This document shows positions 1 through 14,106 of a DNA stretch of 14,226 bases, piece by piece (the stretch's first letter is position 1; each line of letters opens with the position of its first letter). The stretch is from the UHGV virus genome UHGV-0207341. One strand, 5' to 3'. Source of the DNA: a virus. The notes beneath the pieces are model-generated. The model ran no database searches. It had not been told where the DNA came from and saw only the letters and a list, made by a program, of their open reading frames with translations. The translations under genes and the position numbers were made by a program.

Positions 1-1706
1 TTCAGGGATACCGCGTAGCCCGCATTGCTGAAATGCTGGGCGAGAAAGTTGCAACCGTTCACAGCTGGAAAAAACGCGACAAGTGGGGTGACTATGGGCC
101 GCTGGATCAGATGCAGCTCACCACCGCCGCACGCTATTGCCAGCTCATTATGAAGGAGCACAAAGAAGGGAAAGATTTCAAAGAAATTGACCTGCTGGCG
201 CGCCAGTCGGAGCGCCACGCGCGGATCGGCAAGTTTAACAATGGCGGCAACGAAGCCGACTTAAACCCTAACGTCGCCAACCGCAACAAGGGCCCGCGCC
301 GTCAGCCGGAAAAGAATGTTTTCACCGATGAACAGATTGAGAAGCTGGAAGAAATCTTCCATTCCTCCATGTTCAACTACCAGCGCCACTGGTGGGAAGC
401 CGGAAAAACCAACCGCATCCGCAACCTGCTGAAGTCACGCCAGATCGGCGCGACCTTTTACTTTGCCCGTGAAGCCCTGATTGACGCCCTGCTTACCGGA
501 CGTAACCAGATTTTCCTTTCCGCCAGTAAGGCACAGGCTCACGTCTTTAAGCAGTACATCATCGACTTCGCCAAAGAAGTGGAGGTGGAGCTGAAAGGCG
601 ATCCGATGGTGCTTCCTAACGGGGCCACGCTTTACTTCCTCGGCACCAATGCCCGCACGGCCCAGAGTTATCACGGCAACCTGTATCTGGATGAATATTT
701 CTGGATACCGAAATTTCAGGAGCTGCGCAAAGTGGCTTCCGGTATGGCTATTCACAAGAAATGGCGGCAGACCTATTTTTCCACACCATCCAGTCTGACC
801 CACAGTGCTTATCCGTTCTGGTCCGGTGCGCTGTTCAACCGTGGGCGCAACAAAGCTGACAAGGTGGACATCGACCTGTCCCACAGCAATCTGGCCCCCG
901 GCCTTCTGTGCGCCGACGGGCAATACCGCCAGATAGTCACCGTGGAAGATGCGGTGCGCGGCGGCTGTAACCTGTTCGACCTCGACCAGTTGCGCATGGA
1001 GTACAGCCCGGACGAATACCAGAACCTGCTGATGTGTGAGTTCGTGGACGATCTCGCGTCCGTGTTCCCGTTCAGCGAGCTGCAGGCGTGCATGGTAGAC
1101 AGCTGGGAAGTCTGGACCGACTTTCATGCACTGGCCCTTCGCCCGTTTGGCTGGCGCGAAGTGTGGATCGGTTATGACCCGGCAAAAGGTACGCAGAACG
1201 GCGACAGTGCCGGATGCGTGGTGGTGGCACCGCCAGCCGTGTCGGGTGGTAAGTTTCGCATTCTTGAGCGTCACCAGTGGCGCGGGATGGACTTCCGCGC
1301 CCAGGCTGACGCCATCAAAAAACTGACCGAACAGTACAACGTGACCTACATCGGCATCGACTCGACCGGCGTCGGCCACGGGGTTTACGAGAACGTGAAA
1401 GCGTTTTTTCCAGCCGTCCGGGAGTTTGTCTACAACCCCAACGTTAAAAACGCCCTGGTACTCAAAGCCTACGACATTATCAGTCACCGCCGTCTGGAGT
1501 TTGACGCCGGGCATACCGACATTGCGCAGTCCTTTATGGCAATCCGTCGTGCCACCACCGCCAGTGGCAACCGCCCGACCTATGAAGCCAGCCGCAGCGA
1601 AGAAGCCAGCCACGCCGATCTGGCGTGGGCAACGATGCACGCACTGTTTAACGAACCGCTGCAGGGCGAATCCGCCAATACCAGCAATATTGTGGAGATT
1701 TTTTGA
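1..1706 (+). CDS. P: Terminase ATPase (large) subunit, P2 gpP family; 5' end lies upstream of the window
   Basis: Frame is open from the window edge (no stop before the in-frame ATG at 33) to TGA at 1704-1706. Size and character of the 557+ aa translation fit P2-family terminase ATPase subunits (recognition by eye). Stop overlaps the portal start (TGATG), matching the P-then-Q late operon order. Confidence 0.85.
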   Translation, partial: QGYRVARIAEMLGEKVATVHSWKKRDKWGDYGPLDQMQLTTAARYCQLIMKEHKEGKDFKEIDLLARQSERHARIGKFNNGGNEADLNPNVANRNKGPRRQPEKNVFTDEQIEKLEEIFHSSMFNYQRHWWEAGKTNRIRNLLKSRQIGATFYFAREALIDALLTGRNQIFLSASKAQAHVFKQYIIDFAKEVEVELKGDPMVLPNGATLYFLGTNARTAQSYHGNLYLDEYFWIPKFQELRKVASGMAIHKKWRQTYFSTPSSLTHSAYPFWSGALFNRGRNKADKVDIDLSHSNLAPGLLCADGQYRQIVTVEDAVRGGCNLFDLDQLRMEYSPDEYQNLLMCEFVDDLASVFPFSELQACMVDSWEVWTDFHALALRPFGWREVWIGYDPAKGTQNGDSAGCVVVAPPAVSGGKFRILERHQWRGMDFRAQADAIKKLTEQYNVTYIGIDSTGVGHGVYENVKAFFPAVREFVYNPNVKNALVLKAYDIISHRRLEFDAGHTDIAQSFMAIRRATTASGNRPTYEASRSEEASHADLAWATMHALFNEPLQGESANTSNIVEIF

Positions 1707-2734
1707 TGGGAAAGAGTAAAAAGAACCGCGCTGCGTCGACGAACCAGATCCAGCATAAAAGCCAGACTTCAGCCGAAGCATTCAGCTTTGGTGATCCCAT
1801 TCCTGTACTGGACCGCCGCGAACTGCTGGACTATGTGGAATGCGTACAGACGGATCGCTGGTATGAGCCACCCGTAAGTTTTGACGGACTGGCGCGCACC
1901 TTCCGCGCTGCCGTGCATCACAGTTCCCCGATTGCAGTAAAGTGCAACATTCTGACCAGTACCTATATCCCTCATCCGCTGCTCAGCCAACAGGCTTTTT
2001 CGCGTTTTGTGCAGGACTATCTGGTATTTGGTAACGCCTACCTGGAGAAACGCACGAACCGATTCGGTGAAGTTATCGCCCTTGAGCCTGCGCTGGCAAA
2101 ATACACCCGACGTGGGTTAGACCTGGATACCTACTGGTTTGTGCAATACGGCATGACTACGCAGCCGTATCAGTTCACGAAAGGCAGCATTTTTCATCTG
2201 ATGGAACCGGACATCAACCAGGAGATCTACGGCCTGCCCGGTTATCTTTCTGCCATTCCGTCAGCCCTGCTCAACGAGTCCGCCACGCTGTTCCGCCGTA
2301 AGTATTACATCAACGGCAGCCATGCAGGCTTCATCATGTACATGACCGATGCCGCGCAGAATCAGGAGGATGTGAACAACCTCCGCAACGCGATGAAAAG
2401 TGCCAAAGGTCCTGGTAACTTCCGTAACCTGTTTATGTACTCGCCTAACGGTAAAAAAGACGGGCTTCAGATTATCCCGTTGTCAGAAGTCGCGGCGAAG
2501 GATGAATTTCTTAACATCAAGAACGTGAGTCGGGATGACATGATGGCAGCGCATCGTGTGCCGCCACAAATGATGGGGATTATGCCGAATAATGTTGGGG
2601 GGTTTGGGGATGTGGAGAAGGCTAGTAAAGTATTTGTTCGTAATGAGTTATTACCGTTGCAAAAAAGATTACAGGAAATAAACATATGGCTAGATGAGGA
2701 AATAGTAACATTCGATAGTTATCAGCTTACTTGA
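1706..2734 (+). CDS. Q: Portal (capsid vertex) protein, P2 gpQ family
   Basis: 342-aa ORF starting at ATG 1706 (the track's 1703 start is a TTG one codon upstream), with GGAG about 6 nt upstream. Size and position immediately downstream of the terminase gene fit P2 gpQ. Followed by a strong hairpin terminator. Confidence 0.85.
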   Translation: MGKSKKNRAASTNQIQHKSQTSAEAFSFGDPIPVLDRRELLDYVECVQTDRWYEPPVSFDGLARTFRAAVHHSSPIAVKCNILTSTYIPHPLLSQQAFSRFVQDYLVFGNAYLEKRTNRFGEVIALEPALAKYTRRGLDLDTYWFVQYGMTTQPYQFTKGSIFHLMEPDINQEIYGLPGYLSAIPSALLNESATLFRRKYYINGSHAGFIMYMTDAAQNQEDVNNLRNAMKSAKGPGNFRNLFMYSPNGKKDGLQIIPLSEVAAKDEFLNIKNVSRDDMMAAHRVPPQMMGIMPNNVGGFGDVEKASKVFVRNELLPLQKRLQEINIWLDEEIVTFDSYQLT

Positions 2735-2740
2735 AAAAAC

Positions 2741-2761
2741 GGAGTCAGATATTCTGACTCC
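2741..2761. terminator. Bidirectional rho-independent terminator shared by convergent genes
   Basis: Perfect inverted repeat GGAGTCAGA / TCTGACTCC (2741-2749 and 2753-2761) around a 3-nt loop. A T-run follows on the + strand (TTATTT) and on the - strand (read as GTTTTTTCAA). It lies 6 nt after the Q stop and 5 nt after the stop of the minus-strand TIR-like gene. Confidence 0.7.
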
Positions 2762-2766
2762 TTATT

Positions 2767-3369
2767 TCAACCAAGAATGGACTTCAATGACAAATTGAGC
2801 TTATCAATTAATTTTTCATCCTCATAGTTTACAGACTTGATGTTTTTGAGCATCGCAGGCAATTCAGCATCACCAATTATCACAGGAATTATAGGAACAT
2901 AGTTTTCATCTTTTACCGTAGCTTTACGGAGAAAGCCCTCTACCTCTTTTCTTATATATGACTCCATATCTTCATTAGACAGAAGCAATATAGCCGCAGC
3001 GCTATTGTCTATAGCCTGATTAATTTGCTTTTCAATAATCTGCCCGGGCAATATGTTATTTTCATCAAACCATACATCAAAACCTAACTCATTAAGCTTA
3101 CAAGTTATTTGACGGGCCTTATCTTTTTCTTGTACGGGATACATTAGAAATATTTGCTTTCCTTTTTTAACGGCCTTTAGTCTTCTTTCCCTTAATTTCA
3201 TTAACACAATCAAACTCAGGCCAGAATAGGCAAAAGATAAGCCAATCACGGAGATGATAATCTCATCATTAACTCCTTGAAATAAATATGGGAGCCGTGG
3301 AATAAGAGCCATAAGAAACCCAACAACAGCCAATGCAATTGAAATAATATAAAGAGTATTTTTTTTCAT
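2767..3369 (-). CDS. Membrane-anchored TIR-like domain protein (2 predicted N-terminal TM helices plus C-terminal TIR-like domain)
   Basis: 200-aa ORF. Two hydrophobic segments at about residues 6-24 and 37-57, then a basic linker. Residues about 72-200 show the TIR pattern by eye: IFLMY strand, helix, DVWFDENNILPGQII, EKQINQAIDNSAAAILLLS, SYIRKEVEGF helix, VPIIPVII strand. ATG at 3367-3369 directly abuts the TAA of the upstream gene (TAAATG). Gene looks strongly AT-rich versus neighbouring phage core genes. Confidence 0.75.
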   Translation of the reverse strand: MKKNTLYIISIALAVVGFLMALIPRLPYLFQGVNDEIIISVIGLSFAYSGLSLIVLMKLRERRLKAVKKGKQIFLMYPVQEKDKARQITCKLNELGFDVWFDENNILPGQIIEKQINQAIDNSAAAILLLSNEDMESYIRKEVEGFLRKATVKDENYVPIIPVIIGDAELPAMLKNIKSVNYEDEKLIDKLNLSLKSILG

Positions 3370-3786
3370 TTACACACCCTTAATCCACAAAACAAAGGAA
3401 GCAAAAAATAATATGCCGACTAAATTACACCCAATACATAAAACCCAAATTTGACCTTTTGGATTTCCTGTTCGCCCTTCCCAATCTTGATGAAAAGACA
3501 TGATCCCCAGTAATACAAAAAGAGAGAAGGCAAGAAAGCTAGTAGTTCCAATGTACTGATTAACCACTTGGTTAACCGTGGTTACTGTTTGAACAGTTTT
3601 AGTCAAATCATATAAATTCAACAATGATGCACCAATTGTTGATAATATCAACTCATTCCCAAAGTAAAAATCACTCTTTTGCCAACCAGAGGATCTGGCA
3701 AGTTTTTTTACAAAAGCCCCACATAGAATCATCAACAATGGAAAAATTAAAGCAACAACGTATTTATTACCAATGACATCAATCAT
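3370..3786 (-). CDS. Small polytopic inner-membrane protein (about 4 predicted TM helices), unknown function; first gene of the TIR operon
   Basis: 138-aa ORF with ATG at 3784-3786 and AAGGAA about 9 nt upstream. Hydrophobic segments at about residues 10-26, 45-60, 82-98 and 112-135. Stop is immediately followed by the ATG of the TIR-like gene. AT-rich. Confidence 0.7.
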   Translation of the reverse strand: MIDVIGNKYVVALIFPLLMILCGAFVKKLARSSGWQKSDFYFGNELILSTIGASLLNLYDLTKTVQTVTTVNQVVNQYIGTTSFLAFSLFVLLGIMSFHQDWEGRTGNPKGQIWVLCIGCNLVGILFFASFVLWIKGV

Positions 3787-3976
3787 TAATCATCATTCCT
3801 TCAATAAATCGCATCACGCCTTTTTGTTTTTAGCTTCATCCACAACCAGTCACCATCGACATCAATATATCACATACTAAATATATAATAATTTTATCGA
3901 ACTATACAAAGCAACCAAGAGTAAAAATAACATACTCTGCCTTACATTCGAAAGGACATTATTATCCCAACGCGCG

Positions 3977-3995
3977 CTCGTATCCCCGCCACGCC
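3977..3995. other. Candidate cos (cohesive end) site of the P2/186 type
   Basis: The minus strand reads GGCGTGGCGGGGATACGAG. The first 13 nt match my recollection of the conserved GGCG(A/T)GGCGGGGA start of the 19-nt cohesive ends of P2 and 186. It is a GC-rich island in an AT-rich intergenic region, with an inverted repeat TCATGCA-GT-TGCATGA (4018-4033) alongside. Exact ends not verifiable from sequence alone. Confidence 0.35.
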
Positions 3996-4040
3996 TGCCC
4001 GCTTTATGTAGTGGTTTTCATGCAGTTGCATGATCTACGC

Positions 4041-4064
4041 AAAAGCCCGCCAGTTCTGGCGGGC
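4041..4064 (-). terminator. Rho-independent terminator of the 71-aa/280-aa operon
   Basis: GC-rich hairpin GCCCGCCAG-(tt)-CTGGCGGGC at 4045-4064, followed on the minus strand by TTTT (plus-strand AAAA 4041-4044). Lies 49 nt downstream of the stop of the 280-aa gene. Confidence 0.7.
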
Positions 4065-4112
4065 CTCAGCAAAAATGATCCTCAAACGATCATGCGATCT
4101 CATGCAGCATAG

Positions 4113-4955
4113 TCATGCACGATCATTTGACTCAGCATCTGCTGCACGCTTGCTGCGCGAAGATGCACTTTTACTACCAATCTTTCGACAGTTCTTTCTA
4201 TCCCTGGCTTCATTTTCTTTAAATTTGTTATATGTCTCAGTATCAAAAAACGAAATTGTTTCAACCTCATCTTTTGGTATGAGCACACGGAAATCTTCGA
4301 TATTAAGCCGAGACATTCCACTTATCACACCACTATCAAGATAATGTTGGTGATAGTTAGTCGTGATACTAATCGTTAGATCATCTTTATCCCGATATCC
4401 GCTTAACATCGGGAGAAGTTCAAGGTGCTCTGAAAGCCCGTTTTCTAACGCCGGACAAGTAACAAGGCCAACATAGATTTTGCGAGACGACAGAGTTGCT
4501 ATGATCGGAAACTGTCTTGCGGACGCTTCCATAAGTAATGATTCGAAAGCGTTATTACCCACAGCTTTAGCTAAGGCATCCCAGCGACGATCTCCACGTG
4601 ATGTGCGTAACTTATTTCCAAAACCTGAAATCGCAGCGAGGACAATTGAAATCATAACCCATGCTATCTGTTTGATTTCATTTATTCTTTGAAGTTTGTC
4701 TTTCGATGAAGACAACATGCCATTAAAACTGTCAGGTGTTAGATTCAAGGCATTAGCCAGCCAACGAAACCCTCCGCTGACGTTCAAAATAAAGGTGAAA
4801 AAACCGCCAAGGAGAAAAAAAACGATACCCCAGGCAGCCACAAAAAAATAAGCGTCCCAGCCGTTGGAACGCTTATATCGGTATCTTGTTGAAAGTGATA
4901 GGTTTACATAAATAAAACCACTAACCAAAATCACTGCTAAAAGTAATGTTGCCAT
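4113..4955 (-). CDS. Membrane protein of unknown function (3 predicted N-terminal TM helices plus about 170-aa C-terminal soluble domain with a basic tail)
   Basis: 280-aa ORF with ATG at 4953-4955, overlapping the stop of the upstream 71-aa ORF (TAATG). Hydrophobic segments at about residues 3-17, 36-57 and 97-113. Family not recognised. Followed by its own terminator. Confidence 0.7.
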   Translation of the reverse strand: MATLLLAVILVSGFIYVNLSLSTRYRYKRSNGWDAYFFVAAWGIVFFLLGGFFTFILNVSGGFRWLANALNLTPDSFNGMLSSSKDKLQRINEIKQIAWVMISIVLAAISGFGNKLRTSRGDRRWDALAKAVGNNAFESLLMEASARQFPIIATLSSRKIYVGLVTCPALENGLSEHLELLPMLSGYRDKDDLTISITTNYHQHYLDSGVISGMSRLNIEDFRVLIPKDEVETISFFDTETYNKFKENEARDRKNCRKIGSKSASSRSKRAADAESNDRA

Positions 4956-5170
4956 TATCTGGTTCTATTAGTTTTCTCTTTTACAGTGCTCGTTTTGATG
5001 CCTTCAAGCTTATCCATCTGTGCCTTGATGGCATCCATTGCTCTTTTGTTAGACAAGTCTACGGACACAAAACCATCTTTACTAAGATTGAGTTTGTCCT
5101 GGTTCTCTTTAAGAACCCTTGCCAGACGTTCAACTGGGTTACCCAGGCTAAATGCGGCGATGCTTGACAT
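4955..5170 (-). CDS. Small hypothetical protein (71 aa), first gene of a two-gene operon with the 280-aa membrane protein
   Basis: ATG at 5168-5170 with GGGGGAG about 5 nt upstream. Stop overlaps the next ATG by one base. Hydrophilic, no recognisable domain by eye. Confidence 0.6.
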   Translation of the reverse strand: MSSIAAFSLGNPVERLARVLKENQDKLNLSKDGFVSVDLSNKRAMDAIKAQMDKLEGIKTSTVKEKTNRTR

Positions 5171-5440
5171 AACTCCCCCTTTTCACATGGCGCGGAAGTC
5201 TACACTCCGACGCCTACAACCTCAACAGATTATCTTTAAAATTTAGACAACAATATCATCTGTTGATTTCGTTACTTAAACTTAAGTTCAATGCGCTCGA
5301 TCATGCAAGCGGTTTCTTAAGAACTGTTAATTTCCTGGCATATATAGTGGTTAAGGTAACAAATTGACACTAACGCCTCGCATAGCTCGTTGTTCAACCT
5401 TGCTGACGCCAGAAGCAAGTTCAGACGCCAGCAACGTTTC

Positions 5441-5674
5441 TTAATGCAGCCAGCTGTCGTCTTCCCACACCTTCTGCATAATTTTCATCACTTGTTTTCT
5501 TTCTTCGTCCTGTTGCAGTCCGGTCAGTTCCACACCGTTAGAGCTACCTTTGCGGATACGAATTACCGTTTTGGGATACAGGGGGCGCAGATTGCGGTAA
5601 AGCTCGGATTCAAGGGCGTCCAGTGTAGACTGGCTAATCTTCTGCTCTTTATCGATCATTATTTCAATGCGCAT
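5441..5674 (-). CDS. DinI-family protein (resembles the C-terminal DinI-like half of phage 186 Tum antirepressor)
   Basis: Taking the internal ATG at 5672-5674 (GAGGTG 5 nt upstream), the 77-aa product begins MRIEIMIDKEQ and ends WEDDSWLH. This parallels E. coli DinI (MRIEVTIAK ... ETWESADDWFV) by eye. The longer track ORF (start 5746) overlaps the upstream gene and is unlikely. Confidence 0.75.
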   Translation of the reverse strand: MRIEIMIDKEQKISQSTLDALESELYRNLRPLYPKTVIRIRKGSSNGVELTGLQQDEERKQVMKIMQKVWEDDSWLH

Positions 5675-5684
5675 AAAAGTCACC

Positions 5685-5873
5685 TCAGCTGATGACATCC
5701 ATTGAGCGGTTGTATTCGTGGGTTCTGATTTTTGCCATGAGTTCATCAGTCAATTCAGAAACCCACTGCAGAGCCAGCCCCTTCTCTTCATCACTACACT
5801 CACTAGCCGCTACAAGCTTAAGAAAAAAATCAATGCGCTGGAGCTTCAAAGACTCCAAAAAATAGTCCTGCAT
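5685..5873 (-). CDS. Small hypothetical protein (62 aa) immediately upstream of the DinI-like gene; possible N-terminal part of a Tum-like antirepressor
   Basis: ATG at 5871-5873 preceded by AGGAGG about 4 nt upstream. Its TGA stop sits inside the ribosome-binding site of the DinI-like gene. Lies directly downstream of a LexA box. Confidence 0.6.
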   Translation of the reverse strand: MQDYFLESLKLQRIDFFLKLVAASECSDEEKGLALQWVSELTDELMAKIRTHEYNRSMDVIS

Positions 5874-6027: not shown

Positions 6028-8442
6028 TTAATACAGGTTCCGCCACTTATCATCTTCCTGCAAACGCTGGTTCCGATAGAAGATACGCAGGCCTGCTCCT
6101 GACGGAATGCTGCCGCCGCGAAGGAGTAAATCGACCTCTTTCTCGCTGCCATCAAATCCTCTGGACTTCAGTTCATAGACGAGCTGCTGTCGTTGATGGT
6201 CTGTAATTCGCTGTTTGTAGTCTTTACGCCGTTTCGGTTTCACCAGGCGTAACCTTGCTGCCAGTTCCCGGCGCTCTTTTTTGCTCATACTGTGCAGGTA
6301 ATCGTGCAACTCCTTGTCATCCATACGGGTGATATCCGTTCTGGTATCTCCATCAGCTGATTTGTCTTTCCCTTGTTGGTACAAATTTTCAGCAAGGGGA
6401 CAGTTATTGCCACGAGTCCAAGGGGCGCAAGCGCCCTGGTCGGCTACCGCCTCCTGAACGTCAACGGCCTTACGAACCATTTTCCACTTCACTGCATGAG
6501 TGCAGATCTTGCCCTCTGCAATGGGTGACCAGATGCCATAAATACGAATGCCGTGATCGCCATAGGCGGTCGGCTCTTCGTTGATTTCATAAGCGGTTCT
6601 GATAAGGTGATATTTACGGGGAACCAGTACGCCGCCCTGCTTCATGATGTAGGTGGCAAAACAACCAGCATCAGCAGCAGCCAGGATGGCATCAAGGCGC
6701 GGGTCATCCAGTATCGGCGCACCTGCTTTTTTGTCACCCTGTTGCCTTGCCGCCTGACCAGCCAGCAAGCGAAGTTCACGGTAAGCCTGACGTCCCGGAA
6801 TACCAAAGAAGCGGAACTGCTGAACACGATGCAGAGACGCCCAGGCATTAACGTATTCGGCGTTATCACGCAGGGATTTACCCGTTTCCTTGCTGATCTC
6901 GCCAGCCAGACCACGCCCGTCAATGTTCTTACTGATGTATTTCGCGATGTAGCTTGTCGGTGTTCCTTTGCGCGGGTTAATCAGCTCAGACTTAAAGCGT
7001 GGCCCCGTGTTGTTGCCCAGCTCCTCGCGGTCTACACGGATGGCAAACTTACGCAGTAATGCAGTGATGGCGCGGCGGTCTTTTTTACGCATGAAGCACA
7101 TGAGATGCCAGTGCACAGTACCGTCATGGTGCGGCTCAGCCACCCGCACGCCATACCAGCGCAACCCGGTTTTGTGCATTGCCTTACGAAATGCAGCAAA
7201 CATGCCGACCATATAATCGCTGCTTTGTCTTACCGTCGCATTTGTCCAGGTCGGGTTGGGTCTGCCGTTGTTGAGCGTGGAATGGAAACGTGACGGACAG
7301 GTGATAGTGTAGAAAACGGCGCAGTCACCGCGCATTTCCGCGATAAGCTCCAGACCTTTAACACAGGCCATCATCTCATTGCGGCGATGCGCAGGGTTGC
7401 TGCTGCTGGCGTTTACCACATCCTCCATGTCCAGCGTGTCGCCGTCTTCGTTCACCAGTTCATGAGAACGGAAAAACTCCAGCGACTTACGGCGCAGCTC
7501 ACGTTTATGCATCACGGCTTCATAGCTGACATAGGGAGATGCTTTTTTGCTGACCAGGCAGACAGCACGCAACTGCTCTTCCCGCCATTCGCAACGCATC
7601 TTCCATAATTTCCGATACCACCAGTCGGCGCACAACATACGCGCCAGCGAACCCGGAATGAGTTCATAGGGCACGGGTTTACGGCGGTTTCTTTTCCGAC
7701 GGAGTAGCTCAAACGCAGGTGGGATGACATCCAGACGCAGGGTTTCCGCCGCCACCTTTTCCCATGTCTTGCGGATTTCTTCTGGCTTAACGTCATCGGT
7801 GGCATACAAATCGCCACAAGCTGCATCAAGGCACATGCTCATATGCGCAGCTACCAGGGTGGACAGGCGTTTCACCTGATCCTGACTCATTTCAGGCAGG
7901 ATCAGCAGGCCCTCCAGCCCTTGATGGCTTGCCATAAAACGGAAAGAAGCAGACAGCTGACTGTCACGTACACAATCCAGTCGCTCCAGACATGGCTTAA
8001 TCGTCTCACGCAAATAGCGGGAATAAGCCTTTGGCCTGCCCAGGCTGCTGAAGTATTCGATACGTTGCATCAGCGGCTTGCTAATATGGGTGGGCTGGGC
8101 GCTGACGTCCGCCAGAATGACCATGTCCGGGTTAAAACGCTGCTGTTCATGCGCTAGCTTTGCCCGGCTAATGAGCTTATCCTGCTCCATTTCGCGCTGG
8201 ACAGGATCACGAGATTCATTAAAGAAATAACGCTCCCAGACCTGCTCACTCAGTGCATCGCGGCGCAGCTGTTCCTGCTCATTATCGGCAGCGTACAGAG
8301 TGATCAGGTTTAAAAGTGCAGACTCCGGAGCAACTTCCGCCGGGTCCAGATAAGGGTTAATGGCCTTTTTCGGGCCGTTCCATGAAAATGCTGCAGCGGC
8401 CTCGTTAAAGCCGCTAGAGTTGCTCATATCGTCATGACTCAT
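6028..8442 (-). CDS. A: Replication initiation protein (rolling-circle initiator endonuclease), P2 gpA family
   Basis: 804-aa ORF, the largest in the early operon. Size, position downstream of small early genes and general character fit P2/186 A protein (recognition by eye; catalytic motifs not verified). Start ATG at 8440-8442 overlaps the Dam stop (ATGA); a second in-frame ATG five codons downstream is an alternative start. Confidence 0.8.
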
Positions 8443-9296
8443 ACACGCACCTCGTACACAGCAGAACTATCCACGCCACACGAAGGATCAAATCCCACCC
8501 AGCAGCGCGCCCCGGAAACAGCAATGATTTCTGTTGCAGATTTACTCTCGCCAGCCGACACGCCGATGCTGCGTTTTGCCTTGATGTAGTGGTGAGTGAA
8601 ATTTCGATACAGCGAACGGATCAGGGATGTGTCACTGTTAGAAACAATGACTGGATGACCTTCTGATGATCGATATTCAAGAACAGATGCCAGGTGATAC
8701 TGGTCATCTTCAGTGAAGCCGTCAGTGTGATAGCCGGAAAACGTACCGTCATAAGGCGGATCGCAATACACCACATCCCCCACCTGCAGCATCGCCAGCG
8801 TTTCATCAAAGCTGGCGCAGATAAACGTTGCTCGCTGGGCTTTCTCTGCAAATGCGCGAATTTCTTTTTCAGGGAAATACGGATTTTTATAATTACCGTA
8901 TGGAATGTTGAAATGCCCGCTCTTGTTATAACGACATAACCCACGGTAACCATGACGATTGAGATACAGGAAATATACCGCTTTCATGAAATCAGTAATT
9001 TCAGTGGAGTAATTAAACTCCTGCCTTATGTTGTAATAAGCCACCTCCCTGTTTGCTTCCTCAAATAAAGCTCTGGCACGAGATATAAACGCCTCGCAAT
9101 CAGCAGCAACCTTTTTATAGAGGTTGATTAAATCAGGATTAATATCCGCAACAAGATAGCTGGGGTAATCCGTCTCCATCATCACAGCACAGGAACCCGC
9201 GAAAGGTTCAACCAGTCGCGGGCCAGCAGGAAGATGTTTTTTCAGTTCGGACATAATGGCAGTTTTATTACCCGCCCATTTCAGGATGGTGCTCAT
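8439..9296 (-). CDS. dam: DNA adenine methyltransferase (Dam-like, N6-adenine)
   Basis: 285 aa from ATG at 9294-9296. Translation contains [33 protein letters not shown] and DPPY, paralleling E. coli Dam almost motif-for-motif by eye. Start overlaps the upstream stop (ATGA) and stop overlaps the A start. Confidence 0.85.
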
Positions 9297-9595
9297 ACAG
9301 CACCTCCTGCAATAACATATCCTAAAGCTTCTAATGGGGTTAATGGGCGAATTGATAGCATCACCCATTGTTCTGAAACTGCCATGACGTCATTAACCGG
9401 AAGCACATGAGAGATAACAGCGGCCCATTCCCTACCCGTAAATACGCCATGCTTCCATTCGCAAAGAGAAAGAACATCACCAACTTTATAGCCACGATCG
9501 TCTTTACGAAGTTCAGCCGTCTTTTGACCTGCAACCACAGCGTTGAAATACTTAGGTGCAATTTTTAATTGATGGATACGCACTGCCCTTGTCAT
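9293..9595 (-). CDS. DUF3850/ASCH-like (PUA-fold) small protein
   Basis: 100 aa from ATG at 9593-9595. The N-terminal pattern [35 protein letters not shown] is typical of DUF3850 proteins, which often accompany phage methyltransferases (recognition by eye). Start overlaps the upstream stop (ATGA). Confidence 0.6.
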
Positions 9596-11944: not shown

Positions 11945-12090
11945 GGTGCAACATTCCTTCTTTAATTCGGCTTGTGGCGAGCCGTTGTTTATCGTGATTA
12001 GTTGTGAAGGCTCCAAAAGAAGACTTCGAGGTCAACTTTAAGATCGCTTTTGGAATCTGTCAATGCAATTTAGATTGTTTTGGAGGACTC
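11945..12090. promoter_or_regulatory. Lysis-lysogeny switch region between divergent apl and cI (candidate face-to-face lytic and lysogenic promoters)
   Basis: 146-bp intergenic region. On the minus strand, TTGACA (plus 12058-12063), a 17-nt spacer and TAAAGT (plus 12035-12040) form a good lytic-promoter candidate firing toward apl. Its position between apl and the cI start matches the face-to-face arrangement described for 186. No convincing plus-strand lysogenic promoter found by eye. Confidence 0.4.
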
Positions 12091-12654
12091 TTGAATTTCA
12101 ATAGCGGCGGAAAGAAAGTGATTGAACGTTTGGTTGAGGCGTATGGTTTCACCACTCGTCAGGCCCTTTGCGACCACTTAGGGGTTTCAAAGAGCACAAT
12201 GGCAACCCGCTACATGCGTGACATTTTTCCAGCAGATTGGGTACTTCAATGCGTTGTAGAAACTGGTACTTCAATTGATTGGCTGGTATCAGGGAAAGGT
12301 GAGTTAAAAACCACAGCAGTCAACTCTTTGGTAGACGTTGAAACTCGCGAACTAAAAAATGGAGAGGCTATTGCACTTGGAACGCACAAGATTGATCCAG
12401 TCTTTCTTCTCAATGAAATAAAATCTGCATTAGCGATAAAAATTAACCAACATGTTTACATTTGTGACCGAGAAGACACTACCATTTCTGATGGTCAATG
12501 GTTGGTGGATATAGAAGGAAAACTGAGTATTAAAAAAATCAATTTGATACCAGTCAAAAGAGCAATGGTATCTGGGGATGGTTTTTCATTTGAATGTGAT
12601 ATTAGTGATATAAAACCTATAGCTAAGGTTCATACCGTAATCAGTGAGGCTTAA
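12091..12654 (+). CDS. cI: CI-type immunity repressor (phage 186 CI family)
   Basis: Translation has an N-terminal HTH (EAYGFTTRQALCDHLGVSKSTMATRY ... ETGTSIDWLVSGKG) and a C-terminal domain of 186-CI character. There is no in-frame ATG before the HTH. A TTG at 12091 with GGAGG 4 nt upstream gives 187 aa and leaves the lytic-promoter candidate upstream; the track start (GTG at 12004) would bury that promoter in coding sequence. Confidence 0.65.
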   Translation: MNFNSGGKKVIERLVEAYGFTTRQALCDHLGVSKSTMATRYMRDIFPADWVLQCVVETGTSIDWLVSGKGELKTTAVNSLVDVETRELKNGEAIALGTHKIDPVFLLNEIKSALAIKINQHVYICDREDTTISDGQWLVDIEGKLSIKKINLIPVKRAMVSGDGFSFECDISDIKPIAKVHTVISEA

Positions 12655-14106
12655 ATGGATATTGAGTGGAATTGGGATCAAGATGACGAATTTCTTGGTG
12701 AAAAATTACCTGCTGATACATTGGACAGAAAAAAGTACGCAAAATATCTTTATGAAATCTGTGCTGCACGCGGTGCTAAATCCAATCTCGTAGTTAACAT
12801 TAATGCGGAATGGGGGGCTGGAAAAACATATTTTACTAAACGCCTAGCCAAGACAATTTCCCACTACCATCCCACAATATACATTGATGCTTGGAAAGAA
12901 GATTTTACTGAAGACCCATTGCTCACAGTATTTAGTGGAATTAAAGATCAATTATCTGGTCAATCTGATAGCTTTACTGCTTTAATCAATTCAACAATTG
13001 AGAATGTCGGTCCTTTGCTAAAAACAGCGGCACCAGTTATTATTGATGGATTAATACAAAAGTTCACAGGGGTTGACTCCTTTTCTAACCTAACTAAAGA
13101 CTTATCATCTAAGCTAATAGAAATACACGCAGAAAAATCAACGAGAATAGAGACAGTAAGAAAAGGAATTAGTCGTTGGGTTGAATTCATTGGGCGAAAA
13201 GATGGAATAGATAAAGAGCTTCCATTATTTATAATAATTGATGAACTTGATAGATGTAGGCCCGATTTTTCCATTAGTCTTTTAGAAATCTCCAAGCATA
13301 TTTTTAACATCCCTGGCGTAGTATTTATTATTGCCACTGACACCCAACAATTACAGCATTCAATAAAAGTTATATATGGCACTAATTTTTCAGCAAGTCA
13401 TTATCTAAGCAGGTTTTTTGACCGTCGATTCCTTCTCCCAACGCCAGAATACAAAGACTTACTATTAACAAAAACAGGTGAAAACATAATTTCGGAATTT
13501 AATTCTTTACGTAAAAAATTAATTCCATGCCCACAAGACATCACATCATTTGTTAAAAATTGTTCATCCATATTATTATCCATAAAAATAAACATCAGAG
13601 ACGCTGTAAAAATATACGAGAGGCTAATAGACATACTTATCACGTCAAATAAAACATTTGACCCCAATCTAATGTTGATATTATCTGCATTTAATTTCAA
13701 AGATCATGATGTATATGCAAAAATAAAATCAAAAGAAAAGCTAATTCCTAGTCCTCTCAACACAGAGATAGATTTATCATTTGATTTATCTTATGAAACT
13801 ACACAAGTCAAGTACTTCCAAGCTAATGGTGGTGTTTATAGTAATACGTATAAACAAAAAGAAATTTCAACAAATGTTCTATTTTACATAGAGACTGCTT
13901 GGAACACCTTAACGATAGCAAGAACCGCACCTGTTGGCACGCGACCTTACAATACTCCAGAACTTTGGATGGAAGGAGAGTTGTCTCAGGAGGAATCATT
14001 AGCGAACTTTCTCAAAATGGGATACGCCAAAAGCCGGTACAATGAAAGTGAACTAAAAATTCATCAATATTTCGATTTAATTGAACTGAGCACAACATTT
14101 GATTGA
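12655..14106 (+). CDS. KAP-family P-loop NTPase (soluble variant), accessory gene in the repressor operon
   Basis: 483-aa ORF. Walker A in NINAEWGAGKTYF, the KAP-typical IDAWKEDF motif, and Walker B in FIIIDELDRCRP (the DELDRC signature). ATG at 12655 follows the cI TAA with zero spacer, with GAGG 5 nt upstream. Looks strongly AT-rich. No obvious TM insert between Walker A and B. Confidence 0.8.
   Translation: MDIEWNWDQDDEFLGEKLPADTLDRKKYAKYLYEICAARGAKSNLVVNINAEWGAGKTYFTKRLAKTISHYHPTIYIDAWKEDFTEDPLLTVFSGIKDQLSGQSDSFTALINSTIENVGPLLKTAAPVIIDGLIQKFTGVDSFSNLTKDLSSKLIEIHAEKSTRIETVRKGISRWVEFIGRKDGIDKELPLFIIIDELDRCRPDFSISLLEISKHIFNIPGVVFIIATDTQQLQHSIKVIYGTNFSASHYLSRFFDRRFLLPTPEYKDLLLTKTGENIISEFNSLRKKLIPCPQDITSFVKNCSSILLSIKINIRDAVKIYERLIDILITSNKTFDPNLMLILSAFNFKDHDVYAKIKSKEKLIPSPLNTEIDLSFDLSYETTQVKYFQANGGVYSNTYKQKEISTNVLFYIETAWNTLTIARTAPVGTRPYNTPELWMEGELSQEESLANFLKMGYAKSRYNESELKIHQYFDLIELSTTFD

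Follow-up and report, generated by a model that had tools for sequence, protein, structure and literature searches.

Accessory genes around cos in P2-like phages

The surroundings of the packaging site are known to accommodate accessory genes in P2-like phages. Published work identifies the slot from cos to the portal gene as a hotspot of insertion (PMC5694545; PMC9122126), and this slot and the interval between gpA and gpQ have both been described as hotspots before (Dodd & Egan 1996; Rousset et al. 2022). Rousset et al. 2022 defined a defence hotspot in the gpA-gpQ interval close to cos, where 1,650 gene arrangements occur across E. coli, validated at this location an anti-phage system of the P2-like AC1 which combines a TIR protein with a transmembrane protein, and speculated that exchange is driven by the cohesive ends (PMC9122126); a 2026 survey reports the gpA-gpQ hotspot again (PMC13586616). 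Accessory or defence genes also adjoin cos at the P2 old/tin genes, the retrons Ec67 and Ec86, and the left-end genes of phiRSY1 and phiCTX. In Fels-2, SEN8 and Cartapus there are genes between cos and portal, and in P2, 186 and PSP3 this interval measures only ~170-180 bp and contains a terminator. As for the site itself, passages in two later papers credit the 55-bp cos core of P2 and P4 to Ziermann & Calendar 1990 (PMC5694545; PMC9594776), and the cos sequence of phage SEN8 was given as ggcgtggcggggatacgag in its genome announcement (PMC5427200).

Gene context of the site

We sought to compare with these systems a GC island in the window, i.e. the whole 14,226-nt stretch of virus genome UHGV-0207341 that was analysed. 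A preliminary description had proposed that the island is a cos-like site placed between accessory operons instead of next to the portal gene. The gene context that it had given was correct according to open reading frames (ORFs) and domain searches, the genes being arranged as follows:

33-1706, plus strand: terminase large subunit gpP, at least 557 aa, both domains present
1703-2734, plus strand: portal protein (gpQ homologue), 343 aa, Pfam Phage_portal
2767-3369, minus strand: TIR protein, 200 aa, Pfam TIR_2 (3.6e-17), PADLOC TIR-type matches
3370-3786, minus strand: ORF for a 138-aa membrane protein with hydrophobic segments
4113-4955, minus strand: 280-aa ORF, no family match
4955-5170, minus strand: 71-aa ORF, no family match
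5441-5746, minus strand: DinI/Tum-like protein, 41% identity to 186 Tum
6028-8442, minus strand: gpA replication protein
8439-9368, minus strand: Dam-type methylase

The portal stop codon is separated from the predicted cohesive end by 1242 bp. Accessory genes do occur on both sides of the site, as had been suggested, with the TIR operon on the portal side and the 71/280-aa and Tum-like genes on the replication side. The portal-side cargo (2767-3786, minus strand) is a two-gene operon transcribed from cos toward the portal gene: its 200-aa product has two N-terminal hydrophobic helices followed by the TIR domain (TM-TIR), its 138-aa product has several hydrophobic segments, and the general layout of the pair is similar to that of the AC1 system, a TIR protein with a transmembrane protein. 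When the flanking cargo was searched with Pfam and PADLOC, the TIR domain alone was recognised, the PADLOC matches being generic, and domain searches returned no family match for the 138-, 280- and 71-aa proteins. With these genes the two known cos-flanking cargo slots are both filled and, because they occupy such slots, the TIR and 71/280-aa operons are reasonable candidates for phage-defence or lysogenic-conversion genes. The possibility that the 280-aa protein corresponds to 186 Orf97 or Fels-2 STM2726, which reside in the same slot, was rejected, since BLASTP yielded no match, the DinI/Tum gene being the only one shared. Between the convergent portal and TIR genes, at 2741-2761, there is a perfect hairpin with a 9-bp stem and T-runs on both strands, which has the appearance of a terminator acting in both directions and would correspond to tQ/tW of P2 and 186.

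The GC island compared with known cos sites

The plus strand at 3977-3995 was checked directly and reads CTCGTATCCCCGCCACGCC, so that the minus strand from 3995 to 3977 is GGCGTGGCGGGGATACGAG, exactly as first read. The inverted repeat TCATGCA-GT-TGCATGA, seen as TCATGCAGTTGCATGA, is also present at 4018-4033 (arms of 7 nt separated by 2 nt), and the description of a GC island in AT-rich DNA holds as well: G+C content is 0.55 across 3961-4035 versus 0.31 in the left spacer (3787-3970). It is 0.60 across 3971-4068, and 0.35 in the TIR operon. The exact 13-mer GGCGWGGCGGGGA has a single copy in the window (3983-3995, minus strand), while only ~4e-4 copies are expected from base composition. The motif TCATGCR is found five times inside 102 bp (4018-4119), starting at 4018, 4027 (inverted), 4090, 4100 and 4113, and five more times in the remaining 14 kb (Poisson P ~1e-9). 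Both the 13-mer and the TCATGCR clustering are beyond chance.

The circular cos junctions of P2, P4, 186, PSP3 and SEN8 were rebuilt from both ends of their linear records and aligned with Fels-2 and the minus strand of the window, yielding seven sequences in all. The cohesive ends of P2, P4, 186 and PSP3, which served for the core comparison, are annotated in their records. The 55-bp core at 3970-4024 aligns without gaps to these four phages, and the stretch which is continuously common to P2 and P4 in the junction alignment measures 55 bp, in agreement with the published “55-bp core”. Identities to the window were as follows, with the 55-bp core given first and the 19-mer second:

P2: 41/55; 14/19
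P4: 42/55; 14/19
186: 43/55; 15/19
PSP3: 44/55; 15/19
SEN8: 53/55; 19/19
Fels-2: 54/55; 19/19

Alignment to published cos sequences had been proposed as the check on the initial reading, and it gave 41-44 identities out of 55 over 3970-4024 for P2, P4, 186 and PSP3. It had also been remarked that only the first 13 nt fit the known motif. Those 13 nt do match 186 and PSP3, and the rest indeed differs from that motif, but the six 3′ bases concerned (in ATACGAG, versus AAAGCAT) are what the Fels-2/SEN8 lineage normally has. The entire 19-mer, GGCGTGGCGGGGATACGAG, is the same as in Fels-2 and as in the published cos of SEN8, and the isolated phage Cartapus is 100% identical across 3971-4023, within a feature annotated as a putative cos site. 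The P2-family hallmark, a G-rich 19-nt cohesive-end sequence starting with GGCG(A/T)GGCGGGGA, is present. The site lies between portal gene Q and replication gene A, as in the P2/186 layout, and its G-rich (minus) strand reads toward the portal gene, the same as in the P2 and 186 records.

All 74 close relatives have the 19-mer unchanged and, together with the same flanks, it was found in more than 40 species-representative genomes from many genera of Enterobacterales; Chitinimonas has the exact 19-mer too, as does Pasteurella testudinis, there with flanks that diverge more. Homologous base for base to the cos sites of P2, P4, 186 and PSP3, and correct in both place and orientation, the GC island is very probably a cos site, as the preliminary description had supposed, namely that of an E. 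coli prophage of the P2/186/Fels-2 type (Peduoviridae, Fels-2/SEN8-type). For annotation purposes, this fixes the packaging site of the prophage together with the predicted virion ends.

SEN8 and Fels-2 (Felsduovirus) and Cartapus (Elveevirus), which have the identical 19-mer and share the repeats and the hairpin, carry cargo both between cos and portal and between cos and gpA, as is the case here, and differ from the window solely in cargo genes and in single bases, with CGCGCGT here versus CGCGCGC. 186 and PSP3 (Eganvirus) have a cohesive end that begins with the same 13 nt as that of the window, and they also have TCATGCAACTGCAT, the AAAGYGGGCA flank, a GCCAGAGCTGGCG hairpin and a distal group of three TGCAT repeats, with cos oriented in the same way relative to the portal gene. 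Their cohesive end, however, finishes with AAGCAT and not with TACGAG, their cos is ~175 bp from the portal stop with the terminator alone in between, and ~60 bp to the left of cos are conserved between the two of them; neither of the latter features applies to the window. P2 and P4 differ from the window at 5/19 bases of the cohesive end, and P2 is devoid of the inverted TCATGCA half-site and of the spacer hairpin, both of which are present here. The P2 terminase also packages P4, in which the leftward homology ends after (C/T)GCGCGC, as it does here; beyond CGCGCGC on that side, P4 and P2 have nothing in common, which agrees with the sharp left boundary seen in the window.

Predicted cleavage positions and virion ends

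In minus-strand BLAST comparisons, the linear records of 186, PSP3, SEN1, SEN8 and EtG all end opposite window position 3996. Because these five records terminate at the same point, the nicks are predicted at 3996/3995 on the minus strand and at 3976/3977 on the plus strand, and the positions of cleavage deduced from this comparison would leave a 19-nt cohesive end. A full-text literature search for experimental end-mapping of the ATACGAG variant returned homology-based annotations only: the cos sites of SEN8 and Cartapus are themselves annotated by homology, and therefore we found no direct end-mapping for this variant. Contig termini were tried as a substitute for physical ends and discarded, since more than 120 IMG/VR contigs and 54 genome contigs are mostly prophage-derived and have the 19-mer in an internal position, which makes their termini uninformative with regard to virion ends. 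One viral contig, IMGVR_UViG_3300011853_000021, contains two 19-mers in opposite orientation, at 3447-3465 (minus) and 6704-6722 (plus), 3.2 kb apart, which may reflect either two neighbouring elements or an error of assembly.

Limits and anatomy of the cos module

Conservation extends well beyond the 55-bp core. Matches to Fels-2, RE2010, SopEPhi and P2-like phages of Klebsiella and E. coli start at 3971 and stop near 4120 in BLAST comparisons. Profiles built from 189 unique sequences having the 19-mer in cos context show strong conservation throughout 3971-4120 and a collapse within ~2 nt on either side. On the portal side, CGCGCG (3971-3976) retains 1.8-2.0 bits, the next two bases 1.1 and 0.6, and positions beyond them ~0.1-0.3 bits, with 144 different 12-mers past this point. 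The module is composed of the following features:

3971-4120, minus strand: conserved cos module, 150 bp, delimited by BLAST match ends and conservation profiles
3970-4024, minus strand: counterpart of the 55-bp core, TGCATGAAAACC...AAAGCGGGCA, then the 19-mer, then CGCGCGT
3977-3995, minus strand: predicted 19-nt 5′ cohesive end (cosN) GGCGTGGCGGGGATACGAG, from record ends, SEN8 identity and invariance in relatives (74/74)
3971-3976, no strand assigned: CGCGCG flank of the left nick, the sole conserved portal-side sequence
4018-4033, no strand assigned: palindrome made of the cos-proximal repeat (4018-4024, minus) and its inverted copy (4027-4033)
4041-4068, minus strand: G+C-rich hairpin GGCCCGCCAG-AA-CTGGCGGGC followed by TTTT, predicted RNA fold -23.9 kcal/mol
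4090-4096, 4100-4106 and 4113-4119, minus strand: distal direct repeats (C/T)GCATGA, spaced by 10 and 13 bp

The order of elements is shared by all seven aligned phage sequences: three distal TGCAT repeats, a spacer, the proximal TGCAT(G/T)AAAACC, AAAGCGGGC(A/G), the 19-mer, and (C/T)GCGCGC, with the spacer bearing a G+C-rich hairpin in each of them except P2. GCGGGCA and CGCGCG, each lying 5′ of one of the predicted nicks, are pseudo-symmetric to one another. In the window, TGCATGA is present in the module as four direct repeats and one inverted copy, together with the terminator-like hairpin, and the triplet of TGCAT repeats has its equivalent in P2, P4, 186, PSP3, SEN8 and Fels-2. The arms of the palindrome are conserved among relatives, the 2-4-nt centre being variable; its proximal half is kept in P2, P4, 186 and PSP3, and its inverted half is lineage-specific. 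We considered the palindrome as a stand-alone operator and dropped this idea, as one half of it belongs to the cos core, being the proximal TGCAT repeat that is universally conserved.

By their arrangement, the TGCATGA repeats are candidate binding sites for the small terminase subunit (gpM). Four of them in direct and one in inverted orientation are grouped within 102 bp on the gpA side, and may together serve as a gpM docking region of the lambda kind, by analogy only. In lambda cos (cosN plus the cosB R-sites), the nicking site has several short direct repeats on one side, with an intervening spacer that is bendable or structured, and it is this one-sided arrangement of repeats and spacer that positions the small terminase; there is no sequence homology to the window, and the lambda overhang is 12 nt as opposed to 19 nt here.

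The hairpin at 4041-4068 is conserved at 80-99% in relatives and has counterparts in 186, PSP3 and P4. It sits 45 nt downstream of the 280-aa ORF, within the cos module, and is likely to act as the intrinsic terminator of the 71/280-aa operon, as predicted by its fold. On the phage strand, its centre (4052-4057) is GAAC in the window as in SEN8, and GTTC in Fels-2 and many relatives, so that the loop is inverted and the stem is kept. The TGA stop codon of the 280-aa ORF is supplied by the outermost TGCATGA repeat (4113-4119), and the ORF therefore extends 8 nt into the conserved block.

Four GATC sites are located within the cos module, and a fifth one at 4121 (4032-4124), versus 0.55 expected (P ~0.002). 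Those at 4077 and 4088 are conserved in ~88% of the 189 unique relatives, and the cos regions of P2, 186 and P4 have no GATC sites. The phage encodes a Dam-type methylase (8439-9368, minus strand) alongside this GATC-bearing module. In the pac site of phage P1, cutting is controlled by methylation, and the combination found here is reminiscent of such control.

Alternative explanations

The cos sequence might be a relic in a defective prophage that no longer packages its DNA, with nothing left to cut the site. Among complete E. coli genomes, the best match over the full length (99.2%, NZ_CP051001) lies in a degraded prophage that has a truncated portal gene and is devoid of capsid and terminase genes, so that cos copies can persist in dead prophages, and the window covers only part of the prophage. 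Nevertheless, the ORFs for the terminase large subunit (at least 557 aa), portal protein (343 aa), gpA, CII and CI are intact in the window, and its cos module carries no lesion in comparison with the 189 relatives. We consider the relic state to be unlikely, and it would bear on the activity of the site, not on its identity as cos. The matching copy, in E. coli O157:H16 98-3133 (NZ_CP051001, 4446430-4470000), has the TIR cargo, cos and the 280/71 cargo next to ssrA, and no other kind of complete E. coli genome has the full TIR-cos-280/71 arrangement.

The island could also be viewed as a mere terminator or regulatory spacer between two accessory operons, convergent or divergent, its likeness to cos being coincidental. 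Such elements do occur here, namely the strong hairpin with a T-run at 4041-4068 and a weak terminator-like match at 3999-4014, but the hairpin and the 19-mer are separate elements at least 46 nt apart, the latter matches, with its flanks, the cos sites of seven phages column by column, the chance expectation for the 13-mer alone is ~4e-4 per window, and no Rfam family or tRNA was found at the site, all of which makes coincidence very improbable. A structured RNA or tRNA at the site was likewise discarded, as Rfam (E<=1) gave only a sub-threshold miRNA match and ARAGORN gave nothing.

Finally, although P4-type satellites have the same cos family beside a cargo hotspot (PMC9122126), it is hardly conceivable that the site belongs to a neighbouring P4-like satellite or a second tandem element, since it lies between gpQ and gpA of one collinear P2-type genome, as in Fels-2 and SEN8, and ORF and domain searches found none of the P4 core genes psu, sid, delta and alpha between 2734 and 6028. 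Homologues of these four genes were detected in 0/79 IMG/VR loci, and a P4-type integrase near the 19-mer was found among the genome loci only in Chitinimonas L256.

The betaproteobacterial genomes of Chitinimonas sp. BJB300 (loci L212, L213, L217, L218 and L242) and C. taiwanensis (L221, L245 and L256) contain the exact 19-mer with cos-like flanks on three to five contigs each. Some of these contigs have it near divergent gpA or gpQ homologues and others have neither; in C. taiwanensis L256, the P4-type integrase (51% identity) is ~4 kb from the 19-mer. These contigs may be satellites using the same cos.

Cargo variability among relatives

To see how the arrangement around this P2-family cos site varies, we fetched 80 IMG/VR loci in which the portal protein is 93-96% identical to that of the window, 74 of which had enough downstream DNA. 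Between the portal stop and cos there are 160 to 3498 bp in these 74 loci (median ~1750), and in 73/74 relatives more than 500 bp of cargo separate portal and cos, so that separation of cos from the portal gene, which the preliminary description had implied to be odd, is not unusual at all. Portal-side inserts fall into 46 types in 75 loci and replication-side inserts into 22 types in 68 loci; as the 68 loci give 61 distinct two-sided combinations, the two slots assort almost independently. The boundaries of the cargo coincide with the edges of the cos module. In 1280 of 5426 complete E. coli genomes there is a match to part of 2700-5800, but only 3 have the whole arrangement; in most of the top-ranked E. 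coli matches, the cos module and replication-side cargo are ~99% identical starting from 3963-3971, and the portal-side cargo is a different one.

A cos site with accessory genes on both sides is the normal, documented layout of this lineage and is already known; since cos-adjacent cargo hotspots are in the literature, our finding amounts to a correct re-discovery, and leaves the current understanding unchanged. The published text treats the gpA-gpQ hotspot as one, whereas two slots can be distinguished here, with no essential difference otherwise. In the text of the hotspot papers we did not find two independently assorting slots split by a 150-bp module spelled out, and the only, small, addition made here is that the hotspot consists of two such slots around a sharply bounded 150-bp module. 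The module boundaries also lend small support to the turnover of cargo in P2-like phages being centred on cos. In practical terms, their sharpness defines 3971-4120 as a minimal cos cassette for cosmid or transduction work of the Fels-2/SEN8 type.

A possible mechanism

The observed homology, position, orientation, module boundaries and cargo variability suggest the following course of events. During lytic growth, terminase (large subunit gpP, encoded at 33-1706, and small subunit gpM, encoded outside the window) would recognise the 3971-4120 region, most likely by docking on the TGCATGA repeats, all of which are on the replication-gene side. The two strands would then be nicked 19 bp apart, at 3996/3995 (minus) and 3976/3977 (plus), and the packaged DNA would bear 5′ single-stranded ends GGCGTGGCGGGGATACGAG. 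The required cis-acting sequence apparently lies almost entirely on one side of the cut, with CGCGCG alone on the portal side, and the DNA adjoining cos would thus be free to vary, by which means both flanks may have become slots for accessory or defence genes. In virion DNA, the TIR operon would form the extreme left end and the 71/280-aa operon the extreme right end.

A more speculative extension, which we regard as rather doubtful, is that the 150-bp cos module acts as a recombination pivot between the two cargo slots. It fits the nearly independent assortment of the slots and boundaries that are sharp to ~2 nt. If it were true, cargo exchange would start at the cohesive ends, via end-mediated recombination between co-resident P2-like genomes, and the 3′ third of the overhang (TACGAG versus AAGCAT or AAGCAC) would set end-compatibility groups, which would limit the range of phages and satellites able to swap cargo or be co-packaged.

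Away from cos, a gene for a 483-aa KAP-family P-loop NTPase (12004-14106, plus strand) is located directly after the CI repressor gene on the same strand, and a related E. coli prophage has an integrase at the matching position. This position looks like another cargo slot, the contents of which would be expressed in the lysogen.
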